The notes under the pieces: generated by a model
Databases searched by the model: none
Seen by the model: the letters and a program-made list of their open reading frames with translations, nothing else
Told to the model about the DNA's origin: nothing
Shown here: positions 5,177 through 61,363 of the stretch, in pieces
How the letters are laid out: every line of letters begins with the position of its first letter
How positions within the stretch are numbered: the stretch's first letter is position 1
DNA from: Bacilli bacterium
Lineage (GTDB): Bacteria; Bacillota_I; Bacilli_A; RF39; UBA660
Direction: 5' to 3'
DNA: 64,000 nt
NCBI GenBank assembly: GCA_017460745.1
Contig: JAFUAL010000029.1
Coordinates: forward strand, 3,063 to 67,062
Program-made: the position numbers and the translations under genes

Positions 5177-5270
5177 ATTTCAAAAGAAAAAAAGTGCATA
5201 ATTTATTATTTTTTAATTTGCTGTATCAAATAATTTGGACAAGTTAATTTTTGTGTGATATTATGTATAT

Positions 5271-5385
5271 GTCGAATGGGTTTGACGTAAAATAAAAAAG
5301 GAACACTTAATTTCGCATGTTGAGTGTTGCCAATAAAAATTGGATAATCACCTAACGAGTTGCATTGTTAGGTGATTTATTTCTT
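5271..5385 (+). ncRNA. candidate antitoxin sRNA, copy 1 (ends predicted)
   Basis: No SD-led ORF. 5' hairpin GGAACACT 5300-5307 / AGTGTTGCC 5323-5331. Intrinsic terminator AATCACCTAAC 5346-5356 / GTTAGGTGATT 5367-5377 followed by a T-rich tail. Confidence 0.55.
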
Positions 5386-5466
5386 ATATCAAAACTTTAT
5401 AAAGTAATAATTTTAAGAGAATGATAATAATTACTTGAGATAAGATTAAAAATCTTTCTTGTTCAT
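5384..5466 (-). pseudogene. small hydrophobic toxin-like peptide gene, frameshifted
   Basis: GGGAGG SD, then ATG at 5466 reads MNKKDF and stops. The conserved hydrophobic part (FLILSQVIIIILLKLLLYKVLI*) continues in another frame. The shift maps to a T5 run that is C+T5 in copy 2. Confidence 0.55.
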
Positions 5467-5600
5467 ATATGTATCGCCTCCCTTCGATTTAAATCTAGGT
5501 TTGGCAAATCACCCAACTGATTAAGTGTTTACACATATGGTATCATAAATGATAAGATTAATCAATGCGTTTTGTAATATATTTGTAATTTTATTTAGTT

Positions 5601-7303: not shown

Positions 7304-7858
7304 CTAGAAAATATTAAAATGTTCTAGTAAAAATTTTAAACTCATAACAATTAAAATTACTCCTCCAAATACTTCTGCTATTTTTTCATATTTATTTCCA
7401 ATTTTTTTACCAATTAAAACTCCGATAAGTGATAATATGAAAGTAATAATACCAATTAAACTTAAAGCAATAAATAAATTTACTTTAAATAAAGAGAATG
7501 TAAGACCAACAGAAAATGCATCAATATTAGTAGCAAATCCTAAACTAAGTAACTCTATAAAATCTAAATTGGTTTTTAAATTAGAATCCATTAGAGATTC
7601 TTTTATCATATTAAATCCTATTATAAAAAGCAGACCAAAAGCAATTAATTTATTGTATCTAATAAAATATTGATTTAAATTTGTTCCTAAATAGAAACCT
7701 AAAATAGGCATTAATACTTGAAATAAACTAAATGATAAAGAAATGATAATTGCACTTTTTATAATATTATTTTTTATTTTTAATCCTTTGCAAATACTAA
7801 CAGAAAAAGCATCCATTGCTAAACTAAAACTAATTATTATGAGTTCATATATTTTCAT
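7304..7858 (-). CDS. mntP: manganese efflux pump MntP family (DUF204)
   Basis: Six-TM protein with duplicated DAFSV(S/G) motifs (LAMDAFSVSI and NIDAFSVGL). Confidence 0.8.
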   Translation of the reverse strand: MKIYELIIISFSLAMDAFSVSICKGLKIKNNIIKSAIIISLSFSLFQVLMPILGFYLGTNLNQYFIRYNKLIAFGLLFIIGFNMIKESLMDSNLKTNLDFIELLSLGFATNIDAFSVGLTFSLFKVNLFIALSLIGIITFILSLIGVLIGKKIGNKYEKIAEVFGGVILIVMSLKFLLEHFNIF

Positions 7859-43055: not shown

Positions 43056-43124
43056 TTTATAATATGTTTGAAATAGATAATTTTGTTTTTTGACAAGTGA
43101 GTGCTTTTATGATATTATGTATAT

Positions 43125-43243
43125 GTCAAGAGAGATTGGCATAAGATAAAAAAGGAACACTTAATTTGCAAGGTTGAGTGTTGCCATAAAGAATGGTAAT
43201 CACCTAACACATGTTTGATTTTGTTAGGTGATACTTTTATTTG
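43125..43243 (+). ncRNA. candidate antitoxin sRNA, copy 2 (ends predicted)
   Basis: 5' hairpin GGAACACT 43154-43161 / AGTGTTGCC 43177-43185. Terminator ATCACCTAACA 43199-43209 / TGTTAGGTGAT 43222-43232 followed by ACTTTTATTT. Confidence 0.6.
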
Positions 43244-43250
43244 TTAAGAT

Positions 43251-43325
43251 TTATTTATACAATAATCCGATTAATAAAAGGATAATGATAATCAAAAATA
43301 ATACTAAAAAGTCTCTCTTTGACAT
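43251..43325 (-). CDS. 24-aa hydrophobic toxin-like peptide MSKRDFLVLFLIIIILLLIGLLYK
   Basis: GGAGGA SD 8 nt before the ATG at 43325. The SD can pair in the hairpin CCUCUUUUC-UAU-GAAAGGAGG. Against copy 3 there are 6 synonymous and 4 conservative codon differences. Confidence 0.6.
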   Translation of the reverse strand: MSKRDFLVLFLIIIILLLIGLLYK

Positions 43326-43558
43326 ACTATCAGTCCTCCTTTCATAGAAAAGAGGCAATCACCCAACTAATTAAGCGTTCCAATAACAAAGTATCATAAA
43401 TGATTAAAATAGTCAAGTTGATTTGTGATATTTTTGTTTCTTGGTAGATTAAAAATTAACAGGTGTTTCAATGAGATATACAATTAAAAAATTTATATAA
43501 CTATGAAAAAAACAACTGGTTTATGTGAATTTATTTCATTTAAAACAGTTGCTTTTTA

Positions 43559-60795: not shown

Positions 60796-60899
60796 TTTTA
60801 GAATTTATTGTAATGGATTATACTTATATGATTTAACTATTATATATTTTGTATCAAGTAATCTTTGACATTTTACTATTTTTATGGTAATATGTATTT

Positions 60900-61015
60900 G
60901 TCAAGGAAACTTGCATATAATAAAAAAGGAACACTTAATTCGCAATGTTGAGTGTTGCCATTATAAATTTAGCATATCACCTAACTAGCAAGTAAAGTTA
61001 GGTGATTTTGATTTT
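60900..61015 (+). ncRNA. candidate antitoxin sRNA, copy 3 (ends predicted)
   Basis: 5' hairpin GGAACACT 60928-60935 / AGTGTTGCC 60951-60959. Terminator ATCACCTAAC 60976-60985 / GTTAGGTGAT 60997-61006 followed by TTTGATTTT. Confidence 0.55.
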
Positions 61016-61039
61016 GTAAGGAGAATATTAAATTTTCAA

Positions 61040-61120
61040 TTATCTATATAATAATCCTATTAATAAAAGGATAATTACAATCAAAAAGAAAACTAGATAA
61101 TCTCTTTTAGAGATAATCAT
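61040..61120 (-). CDS. 26-aa hydrophobic toxin-like peptide MIISKRDYLVFFLIVIILLLIGLLYR
   Basis: ORF collinear with copy 2. The SD-like GGGTGGTG abuts the ATG and can pair with the upstream CCUCCAC. The codon aligned with the copy-2 ATG is ATC. Confidence 0.5.
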   Translation of the reverse strand: MIISKRDYLVFFLIVIILLLIGLLYR

Positions 61121-61363
61121 CACCACCCGTGGAGGCATCACCCAACTAATTAAGTGTTCACAAATATAGTATCATAAATGCAAATAATAATCAAACAAAT
61201 GTGTAGCATTTTTGTGAATTTGTTTTAAAAATTTTCTATCTTTCTTATTTTAATTATTTTACAGTTATATACTTTATAAGTAATGTTAAAAATAATTAAT
61301 AATCATAAAATTAAGTTGCGTATGCAGTGTCTCGTATGATATTATTAAGGGGAGGGATTTTTT

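Follow-up and report, generated by a model that had tools for sequence, protein, structure and literature searches.

A two-gene locus in three copies

Within the window, that is, the whole stretch of 64,000 nucleotides analysed here, a compact two-gene unit occurs three times, and its anatomy is described on copy 2. The plus strand carries the gene of a small RNA (sRNA), whose promoter (43090..43118; TTGACA, a 17-nt spacer and TATTAT with an upstream TG, 11/12 matches) has the same layout in 13/13 loci of the genome and would set the start of the RNA at ~43124-43126. At its 5' end lies a hairpin, H0 (43124..43141, plus strand; UGUCAA-gagaga-UUGGCA), which reads CAAG-GAAA-CUUG in most relatives, with covariation CG/GU, AU/GC and GC/AU, and which falls outside the overlap between the sRNA and the toxin mRNA. 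A run of six A (43148..43153) abuts the left hairpin and, on the minus strand, supplies the U6 of the proposed toxin-mRNA terminator. The left inverted-repeat arm itself (43154..43185; GGAACACTTAATTTGCAAGGTTGAGTGTTGCC) folds on the plus strand into the sRNA hairpin H_L (-11.5 kcal/mol) and on the minus strand into a weak hairpin, H_L' (-4.7 kcal/mol), predicted to be both the 3' strand of the fold-back and a terminator stem. Between H_L and the sRNA terminator, the minimum-free-energy fold of the sRNA contains a small spacer hairpin (43183..43197, plus strand; GCCAU-aaaga-AUGGU) whose GCCA..UGGU pattern is also present in relatives. The intrinsic terminator T of the sRNA, the central hairpin of the locus, occupies 43199..43242 of the plus strand, pairing 43199-43209 with 43222-43232 ahead of a U-tract at 43235-43242; it is unidirectional, its minus-strand tail being UACCAUUC.

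The toxin gene runs towards the sRNA gene on the minus strand. Its promoter, as read from the sequence (43388..43416; TTGACT, a 17-nt spacer and TACTTT with an upstream TG), would start the mRNA at ~43381; relatives have a TATAAT box 5-7 nt before GGAA, and 101/108 loci match it at 5-6 of the 6 positions. The right inverted-repeat arm (43354..43381, minus strand; genomic GGCAATCACCCAACTAATTAAGCGTTCC) would make up the first 28 nt of the toxin mRNA, GGAACGCUUAAUUAGUUGGGUGAUUGCC. This arm is the 5' strand of the fold-back; on its own it forms a weak hairpin (mean -4.0 kcal/mol), and the second complementary site discussed below would pair with the arm's 3' half, GUUGGGUGAUUGCC. Downstream, the Shine-Dalgarno sequence (SD) GGAGG is held in a sequestering hairpin (43335..43355, minus strand; CCUCUUUUC-uau-GAAAGGAGG), an anti-SD element seen in all toxin families with a predicted opening cost of 8-10 kcal/mol. 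The toxin open reading frame (ORF; 43251..43325, minus strand) encodes 24 aa, MSKRDFLVLFLIIIILLLIGLLYK. The unit of copy 1 spans 5294..5530 (A6 at 5294-5299, H_L at 5300-5331, right arm at 5503-5530) and its toxin ORF is frameshifted after MNKKDF; that of copy 3 spans 60922..61159 (A6 at 60922-60927, H_L at 60928-60959, right arm at 61134-61159), with a toxin ORF of 26 aa at 61040-61120 on the minus strand. Repeat and folding analysis places the terminator arms at 5346-5356 and 5367-5377 in copy 1 and at 60976-60986 and 60996-61006 in copy 3.

At the family level, the locus is a member of an undescribed type I toxin-antitoxin superfamily. It combines a small hydrophobic peptide gene with a cis-encoded convergent antisense sRNA, as is general for type I systems; the predicted peptides have 24-34 aa, with a charged N-terminus and one hydrophobic helix, and the convergent sRNA has its own promoter and terminator, with three helices that covary. 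The peptide is, on sequence grounds, a putative toxin that the sRNA would neutralise. Thirteen such loci are found in its own 1.47-Mb genome, and the family is present in 111/201 sampled genomes from one family of uncultured gut Bacilli, spread over more than 100 genera and reaching up to 17 copies per genome (in a genome of ~1.2 Mb). The loci are multi-copy, arranged in tandem and adjoin tRNA genes. Neither at the gathering threshold nor at E up to 10 did Rfam return a relevant match, and at E up to 10 the toxin peptide hit no family of Pfam or NCBIfam; these searches also gave no homology to BsrG or SR4. The genome contains the RNase III gene rnc (222.8 bits). Neither Hfq nor Rho was found in it, and on those grounds the A-run as an Hfq site and a Rho-dependent end of the toxin mRNA were both rejected.

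At the expression level, the window's own locus appears in none of the RNA runs searched. Two homologues (L182 and L219) are represented in mouse gut metatranscriptome runs by unstranded contigs, in which transcription is seen, with a depth of zero at the sRNA promoter in four runs. At the repeated 5' region of the sRNA these contigs are interrupted, some of them run across promoters, and they do not show the toxin 3' end.

The inverted-repeat ends and the probable 3' end of the toxin mRNA

The original prediction held that the ends of the unit are inverted repeats in all three copies, and this was borne out, with 24-27 bp and -29 to -34 kcal/mol in 3/3 copies. In copy 2 a repeat search returned arms at 43154-43166 and 43369-43381 (13 nt, 92%), with equivalent arms in copies 1 and 3. 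When the toxin 5' UTR was matched with RNAduplex to the reverse complement of the left end, the anticipated pairing of about 26 bp in copy 2 was recovered as two blocks of 13 with 2 G-U (-33.6 kcal/mol), and the corresponding duplexes comprised 27 bp in copy 1 (-28.9 kcal/mol) and 24 bp in copy 3 (-29.8 kcal/mol). Chance is an insufficient explanation, as over 100 homologous loci belonging to other genera keep the pattern and show covariation in it.

In 3/3 copies, UUUUUUAU comes after the left hairpin when the minus strand is read, and this hairpin had been proposed as a second, stronger terminator of the toxin mRNA. The U6 part of this claim stands but the strength does not: on the toxin strand the hairpin has -4.7 kcal/mol, against -12.8 to -13.7 kcal/mol for the central one. 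The companion notion of the central hairpin as a terminator shared by both genes fails on its tail, as the 8 nt that follow it contain on average 2.0 U on the toxin strand versus 6.5 on the sRNA strand over 137 loci; the 8 nt after the H_L complement contain 6.6 U on the toxin strand in the same 137 loci. Within the window, the toxin-strand tail of the left hairpin has 7/8 U versus 2-3/8 after the central hairpin. Since the latter has no toxin-strand U-tract, the left site is the only canonical terminator there and not a second one.

A terminator scan of our own, run without bias downstream of the toxin stop codon and calibrated on 587 long ORFs of the genome, gave the same picture. The first terminator-like signal past the stop was the H_L complement with its U-tract in 73/108 loci and the central hairpin in 3/108, and the mean energy of the former (-8.3 kcal/mol) equals that of the genome's median gene terminator (-8.4 kcal/mol). 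A simpler scan did not call the left toxin-strand hairpin and, among the sRNA terminators, called only that of copy 1, because its rules exclude bulged stems and long loops. In the toxin family of the window, the toxin-strand terminator hairpin is weak (-4.7 kcal/mol) and has a bulge near its base. Judging from these terminator signals, the toxin mRNA probably ends at the left hairpin and its U6, inside the antitoxin gene. The overlap of the toxin mRNA with almost the whole sRNA, as originally put forward, is retained as an overlap and reduced in extent to ~80% of the sRNA, taking the predicted 3' end.

The predicted closing helix, the second complementary site and their alternatives

Given the predicted 3' end, a helix between the 5' and 3' ends is part of the minimum-free-energy fold of the long toxin mRNA in 108/108 loci, with a mean of 25 bp and a gain of -15.6 +/- 3.9 kcal/mol, and the fold-back is also predicted by RNAalifold from 83 sequences. 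The end-to-end duplex is stronger for cognate than for non-cognate partners (-33.0 vs -22.6 kcal/mol). The search for compensatory changes called for by the original prediction came out in favour of the helix: counting alignment cells, which are not phylogenetically independent, 94.8% are paired vs 83.7% in shuffles and 284 are compensatory vs 94 +/- 12, and controls slid along the sequence reach 32-47% paired. Read on the toxin strand, the non-Watson-Crick cells of the fold-back are 201 G-U vs 16 A-C, which points to RNA-level selection on that strand.

This mismatch bias bears directly on the proposal that the end-to-end repeat has no RNA function of its own, the three hairpins being homologous copies of one palindromic module that are alike by descent, through template switching at quasi-palindromes or as DNA terminal repeats of a mobile unit, and the toxin mRNA ending at the central hairpin. 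A core motif common to all three hairpins, promoters that are also alike at both ends and the tandem, multi-copy placement beside tRNA genes would all agree with such an origin. However, the repeat does not lie at the ends of the conserved unit and the promoters are outside it, classes of differing sequence each keep their own complementarity, and the plus strand is the more stable one for H_L in 112/137 loci and for T in 110/137. An mRNA end at the central hairpin would also have to do without a toxin-strand U-tract in a genome without Rho. We regard this origin as very unlikely, and its variant with DNA-level terminal repeats of a mobile unit was rejected on the strand-specific excess of G-U over A-C. 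The likeness of the two ends could partly reflect the homology of all three hairpins and the constraint that a common partner puts on them.

The fold-back had also been likened to the inhibition of hok-type mRNAs, and here the expectation was not sustained. The SD sits in its own local anti-SD hairpin, and its predicted opening cost is lower in the long form that folds back (8.2 kcal/mol) than in a form ending at the central hairpin (10.5 kcal/mol), with 8.9 kcal/mol for a 5' fragment. The fold-back does not tighten the sequestration of the SD, so that hok is the wrong analogue. Local hairpins form first in transcription, and the thermodynamic fold-back may thus go unreached. When the sRNA is cofolded with the toxin mRNA, the overlap becomes a perfect duplex (gain ~-80 kcal/mol), and with the overlap blocked the predicted cost of opening the SD is 1.3 kcal/mol higher in 83/108 loci, a small effect.

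A second stretch complementary to the toxin 5' UTR had been noticed in the sRNA, at the 5' arm of its terminator. The site, GGUAAUCACCUAAC (43195..43208, plus strand), consists of this arm and 4 nt upstream of it, and the pairing was reproduced in the three copies: in copy 2, GUAAUCACCUAAC matches GUUGGGUGAUUGC over 13 bp with 2 G-U (-19.9 kcal/mol), or 14 bp with an extra G-C, and the contiguous matches amount to 11 bp in copy 1 and 12 bp in copy 3. The complementarity and its covariation are firm, whereas a role in trans is just one of two possible interpretations, as equally good pairing is available in cis, with the toxin mRNA's own internal hairpin. In the trans version, the sRNA terminator arm would reach the toxin 5' UTR in its 3' half, immediately ahead of the anti-SD, and control translation or decay through this second contact. 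The window copies reach 11-13 contiguous bp at -18.9 to -22.8 kcal/mol, cognate pairs are stronger than non-cognate ones (mean -14.9 vs -10.2 kcal/mol), and pairing in the core helix of 7 bp reaches 93%, with compensatory cells numbering 188 vs 69.5 +/- 9.6 in shuffles. Furthermore, the UTR arm (G/A) covaries with both terminator arms (C/U, G/A) in every locus readable at all three positions, and this three-way covariation appears inside two toxin families, while the H_L arm stays A. The trans pairing is slightly better than the cis one, by -1.2 kcal/mol. Nevertheless, the sRNA site is buried in a terminator stem of -13 kcal/mol and its target in the fold-back, full pairing of the sRNA with the 3' overlap would already occupy the arm, and the terminator arm is the best sRNA site for the UTR in only 47/106 loci. 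The target, in addition, lies upstream of the anti-SD and not on the SD or the start codon. A contact of this kind is a possible but doubtful component of the system.

In the cis version, the 3' half of the toxin 5' UTR would alternate between the 5' arm of the mRNA's internal hairpin and the 3'-terminal strand, in a refolding of the hok or AapA1 kind that could be co-transcriptional or follow processing, with a change of state after 3' trimming to the internal hairpin. The same covariation speaks for it, and at the terminator wobbles, 75 cases vs 3 have a UTR base that forms a Watson-Crick pair with the internal arm of the mRNA but just a G-U pair with the sRNA arm. This last figure counts against the trans contact, but it does not discriminate in favour of the switch, since the fold-back partner demands the same Watson-Crick bias. 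If the mRNA ended at the internal hairpin, its long-range helix (-13.7 kcal/mol) would be about isoenergetic with the local hairpins (-10.6 and -4.0 kcal/mol), and the toxin-strand hairpins have C-A mismatches where the sRNA hairpins have G-U. Against such a switch, the internal hairpin stays closed in the minimum-free-energy folds and the processing of the toxin mRNA is an assumed step; we consider it unlikely. Neither energies nor wobble positions discriminate between trans and cis pairing at the second site. The spacer GG as an extension of the trans helix was likewise discarded, the small hairpin inside the sRNA explaining it better. Finally, the antiterminator-like alternative within the sRNA, originally offered as a weaker observation, was not supported: the pairing is weak (-9.2 to -11.4 kcal/mol) and of low specificity, and no covariation links the hairpin arm, which stays A, to the terminator arm, which switches C/U.

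A proposed mechanism: a closed toxin mRNA opened by its antitoxin

From anatomy, conservation, covariation and folding energies we infer the transcript ends, the fold in vivo and the effects on decay and translation as follows. The plus strand would give an sRNA of ~115 nt composed of H0, an A-rich linker, H_L and the unidirectional terminator T. The toxin mRNA would begin at the right inverted-repeat arm, pass the central hairpin, where that strand lacks a U-tract, and stop at the H_L complement and its U6, giving an RNA of ~235 nt whose final ~95 nt are antisense to the sRNA. Its first ~30 nt could then pair with its last ~40 nt in a panhandle of ~25 bp that would close the molecule, abut the local anti-SD/SD hairpin and shield both ends, making the toxin mRNA stable and compact. 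By pairing with the 3' overlap, the sRNA would form a perfect duplex of ~90 bp, a would-be substrate of RNase III, and displace the 5' strand, whose GCC end would become free to lengthen the anti-SD helix. To this whole explanation, a type I toxin-antitoxin family whose toxin mRNA ends at the H_L complement, closes into a 5'-3' panhandle and is opened by the sRNA, we assign a probability of about 0.6. An extension that we hold to be quite unlikely treats the G/U-rich 5' strand of the toxin mRNA as a multi-partner element, able to pair with the 3'-terminal strand, the internal hairpin arm and the sRNA terminator arm; in families with a weak local 3' hairpin, it would be the long-range 5'-3' helix that halts the polymerase at U6. 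If so, the end of transcription and the locking of the mRNA into an inert panhandle would be one event, and to unlock it, the sRNA would invade a helix in which the partner strand imitates the arm of the sRNA's own terminator.

By analogy, the closest precedent for the fold-back is helix P1 of bsrG/SR4. In the bsrG mRNA, structure probing has defined P1 as nt 1-35 paired with 232-262, and its opening by SR4 extends the SD helix from 4 to 8 bp (PMC3834814). Both systems have convergent loci, an antitoxin complementary to the toxin mRNA in its 3' part and a long 5'-3' helix that closes this mRNA, here predicted in the 108 loci. The freeing of the 5' strand by the antitoxin, which lengthens the SD helix of bsrG, may have its counterpart here in the predicted rise of the SD-opening cost in 83/108 loci, and the RNase III dependence of duplex decay in that system in the presence of an RNase III gene in the genome. 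In bsrG, P1 is followed by a distinct terminator stem-loop, whereas here the panhandle's 3' strand would itself serve as terminator stem and is also complementary to an sRNA hairpin. Three quasi-palindromic hairpins sharing a core are found only here, the toxins and RNAs show no sequence relation, and the present system is predicted from sequence. The architecture itself has already been probed in Bacillus subtilis with bsrG/SR4, and what is new is a very widespread family.

Other type I systems have partial parallels. With hok/Sok and AapA1/IsoA1 the family shares 5'-3' pairing of the full-length toxin mRNA through conserved covarying helices, here in silico. In hok and AapA1, however, the fold-back governs access to the ribosome-binding site, 3' trimming activates the mRNA and the antisense RNA binds the 5' region, whereas here the SD lies in a local hairpin and the sRNA covers the 3' end together with the fold-back strand; there is no relation between the toxins, and Pfam gave no match to Hok/Gef. 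Convergent RNAs, an intergenic hairpin, an SD in a 5' stem-loop and possibly more than one complementary region recall the par locus of pAD1 (fst RNA I / RNA II) from Enterococcus faecalis. The par-like geometry that had been suggested is nevertheless absent. In par, direct repeats make the 5' ends complementary and a truly shared bidirectional terminator is used; here the ends are inverted repeats, so that the two 5' regions are alike and not complementary, the central terminator works on one strand only, as its U-counts above indicate, and the overlap would amount to ~95 nt. The toxin UTR is barely cognate-specific for the sRNA H_L in trans (-16.9 vs -15.1 kcal/mol), and the peptide has no Fst-family match. 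SprA1/SprA1AS of Staphylococcus aureus also has a cis-encoded antitoxin with a 3' overlap and a non-overlapping region that might contact the toxin 5' UTR; SprA1AS places its 5' domain on the SD and start codon, whereas here the candidate is the terminator arm and its target lies upstream of the anti-SD.

These loci offer a concrete RNA architecture for a type I toxin-antitoxin superfamily that is undescribed and very abundant. It suggests that a 5'-3' closing helix opened by a 3'-overlapping antitoxin, a notion that has so far rested mainly on bsrG/SR4, may recur in Firmicutes. The more than 100 natural variants with compensatory changes constitute a mutational series on the antisense invasion of folded targets, and the conserved G-U pairs that become C-A on the opposite strand illustrate how one palindrome can have different roles on two overlapping transcripts.

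Organization of the putative toxin-antitoxin unit

The inverted repeat at 43148-43385 lies within a compact putative type I toxin-antitoxin unit that occupies both strands between 43090 and 43416, and the same layout is found in two further copies within the window (about 5230-5560 and about 60860-61200). On the plus strand, a strong promoter (TTGACA-17-TATTAT with an upstream TG) drives a presumed antitoxin sRNA of about 115 nt that consists, from 5' to 3', of a small hairpin (H0), an A-rich linker closed by an A6 run (43148-43153), the hairpin H_L of the left repeat arm (43154-43185) and the terminator T, or central hairpin, whose stem (43199-43232) is followed by a U-tract. A small hairpin GCCA(n)UGGU, present also in relatives, is located between H_L and the terminator (43183-43197) and takes the last GCC of H_L, therefore competing with its base. 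On the minus strand, the toxin promoter (43388-43416) precedes an mRNA that starts at about 43381 with GGAACGCUUAAUUAGUUGGGUGAUUGCC, the right repeat arm. Its SD is held by a local hairpin, CCUCUUUUC-uau-GAAAGGAGG, and it encodes a 24-aa peptide, MSKRDFLVLFLIIIILLLIGLLYK (43325-43251). In copy 1 the toxin ORF (5444-5472) ends after MNKKDF, within a T5 run, and an ATA codon 6 nt past the SD GGGAGG opens a family-like frame, YEQERFLILSQVIIIILLKLLLYKVLI; ATA also replaces ATG in another copy of this genome (G000:C19:46179). These two copies are either decaying or equipped with weak non-ATG starts.

The probable 3' end of the toxin mRNA and its predicted pairing with the 5' end

For comparison, 129 loci were taken from relatives and 137 sRNA genes were parsed, 108 of these loci having a well-defined toxin ORF and 5' UTR. 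The original prediction considered the central hairpin a terminator shared by both transcripts and the left hairpin a second, stronger one for the toxin mRNA. Instead, the central hairpin is a terminator of the sRNA only: across the 137 loci, the 8 nt that follow it contain 6.5 U on the sRNA strand versus 2.0 on the toxin strand, whose usual tails are UAACCAAA. In the window copies, 2-3 of these 8 nt are U on the toxin strand compared with 7/8 after the left hairpin, which is directly followed on the minus strand by UUUUUUAU, and the H_L complement is followed by 6.6/8 U in the 137 loci. The superiority attributed to the left hairpin is thus confined to its U-tract, its stem reaching -4.7 kcal/mol on the toxin strand versus about -13 for the central hairpin. 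Both H_L and T are stabler on the plus strand (112/137 and 110/137 loci, respectively), and the conserved G-U pairs of the sRNA hairpins become C-A on the opposite strand. In a custom terminator scan calibrated on 587 long ORFs of the genome (median terminator -8.4 kcal/mol), the first terminator-like signal past the toxin stop was the H_L complement with its U-tract in 73 of the 108 loci (mean -8.3 kcal/mol) and the central hairpin in 3. No Rho or Hfq homologues were found in the 93%-complete assembly, so that intrinsic termination is the only known option and a role of the A-run as an Hfq site was discarded; RNase III is encoded (G000 C54:33912-34547). Judging from the sequence, the most likely 3' end of the toxin mRNA is the U-tract adjoining H_L, in which case the mRNA would overlap around 95 nt of the sRNA, itself roughly 118 nt long.

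Both the end-to-end repeat and the second complementary site of the sRNA were confirmed, far above chance. The repeat is found in all three copies and, as minus-strand RNA, pairs over 27, 26 and 24 bp in copies 1, 2 and 3 (-28.9, -33.6 and -29.8 kcal/mol), in copy 2 as the two 13-bp blocks anticipated. Assuming the predicted 3' end beside H_L (mean mRNA length about 231 nt), the minimum-free-energy fold includes the 5'-3' helix in 108/108 loci, with a mean of 25 bp and a gain of -15.6 +/- 3.9 kcal/mol relative to the two parts folded separately. By itself the 5' arm is a poor hairpin (-4.0 kcal/mol; 3' arm, -8.7) and, consequently, looks more like one half of a long-range duplex than an independent stem-loop. 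Cognate ends form duplexes of -33.0 kcal/mol versus -22.6 for ends mixed across loci. When 83 distinct sequences were aligned with their first 38 nt fused to the 3' end, RNAalifold predicted the fold-back, 94.8% of the cells being paired (83.7% after shuffling), and sliding the partner by 1-3 columns lowered pairing to 32-47%. Compensatory cells numbered 284 versus 94 +/- 12 in shuffled alignments, a count of cells that are not independent events; moreover, the three hairpins are homologous. Non-Watson-Crick cells comprised 201 G-U versus 16 A-C, G-U cells being mismatches if the other strand were the one folding. Together with the fold-back data, this strand bias argues that the repeat is shaped for a toxin-strand RNA holding both ends. 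A terminator located within the sRNA gene combined with a 5'-3' panhandle is the best reading, with a probability of roughly 0.6.

The second site and the proposed control of translation

Complementarity between the 3' half of the toxin 5' UTR and the 5' arm of the sRNA terminator exists in every toxin family, via differing sequences; in the window copies, the pairing initially described extends over 11-13 contiguous bp (-18.9 to -22.8 kcal/mol). Across loci, the mean energy of the complementarity is -14.9 kcal/mol for cognate versus -10.2 for non-cognate pairs, and its 7-bp core helix is 93% paired, with 188 compensatory cells versus 69.5 +/- 9.6 after shuffling. The cleanest covariation links G/A changes of the UTR arm with C/U and G/A of the two terminator arms in all readable loci; this three-position switch occurs within two different toxin families with the equivalent H_L base remaining A, which indicates that the complementarity is selected and follows the terminator, not H_L. 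Because the terminator is palindromic, the 5' arm of the toxin mRNA's internal hairpin is an equally good partner for the UTR arm (cis -13.7 versus trans -14.9 kcal/mol; trans better in 58 loci, cis in 44). Where the terminator has wobble pairs, the base of the UTR forms a Watson-Crick pair with the cis partner but only G-U with the sRNA (75 versus 3), a bias that is not decisive since the fold-back partner requires the same base. What had been proposed as a trans site stands as a conserved, covarying complementarity whose partner may be either the sRNA arm or the mRNA's own internal hairpin, neither energies nor wobble positions distinguishing the two. The analogy with par was not supported, and an antiterminator-like pairing inside the sRNA (H_L 3' arm with terminator 5' arm) was rejected as weak and devoid of covariation.

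The hok-like inhibition ascribed to the fold-back was likewise not supported. The predicted cost of making the SD core and the start codon accessible is 8.9 kcal/mol in a 5' fragment, 10.5 in an mRNA that stops at the central hairpin and 8.2 once the mRNA is folded back, the last value being no higher because the GCC ending the 5' arm is common to the panhandle and the anti-SD helix. The SD hairpin lies 0-1 nt after the panhandle in 70/108 loci. In cofolding with the sRNA, the entire overlap forms a perfect duplex that gains about -80 kcal/mol; once the overlap is occupied, the 5' strand is predicted to be freed and the SD-opening cost to change by +1.3 kcal/mol (83/108 loci). In bsrG mRNA, helix P1 joins nt 1-35 with nt 232-262, and structure probing demonstrated that SR4 binding leaves nt 1-33 single-stranded and extends the SD helix from 4 to 8 bp, the duplex being degraded by RNase III (PMC3834814). 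A 5' strand freed by the antitoxin and an SD held tighter, as probed in B. subtilis, are predicted for the present family; bsrG/SR4 is therefore taken as the closest mechanistic precedent. A difference is that here the 3' strand of the predicted panhandle doubles as terminator stem and as complement of an sRNA hairpin.

Distribution and expression of the family

A search with nhmmer and a covariance model made from the genome's own copies identified 13 loci in this 1.47-Mb assembly, in which at least five unrelated-looking toxin peptides stand behind one common sRNA 5' module. Within the GTDB family of this genome, 111 of 201 genomes (110 of 200 genera) contain matches to the model, and single genomes carry as many as 17 copies; the 16 genomes with matches in a class-wide sample of 301 all belong to that family (16/16). 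Rfam, Pfam and NCBIfam gave no match for the locus. In public records the hosts appear as uncultured gut Bacilli, 'Tenericutes' or Mollicutes MAGs of rabbit, mouse, chicken and goat origin, among them Candidatus Ventrenecus. Some sRNA-bearing contigs (among L166, L202, L206 and L234) are labelled Muribaculaceae, Roseburia or Bacteroidaceae, probably reflecting mis-binning or wrong labels and not true hosts. Across more than 100 genera, conservation within the locus is highest in the sRNA 5' hairpin CAAG-GAAA-CUUG plus CAUAAAAUAAAAAA (43124-43153); this hairpin lies outside the predicted toxin mRNA overlap. Tandem loci of different toxin families occur at G000:C19:46041-46771, G000:C57:8201-8943 and G000:C7:67320-67570, two of them directly following tRNA genes, and orphan or truncated copies lack the toxin 5' end (C12:105457) or the toxin ORF (C5:19396).

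None of the RNA runs searched contained the window's own sequence. Homologous loci are transcribed, as they appear in mouse gut metatranscriptomes as unstranded contigs, which are broken at the repeated sRNA 5' region and do not locate the toxin 3' end. At a locus from a mouse gut MAG (L219), coverage halts at the sRNA start, the depth over the sRNA promoter (7488-7521) being zero in four runs, and is maximal across the conserved sRNA 5' region. This suggests abundant expression of the family's sRNAs in the mouse gut. The locus represents a toxin-antitoxin family that is new and very widespread, and its predicted regulation would be a variation of an already known type.
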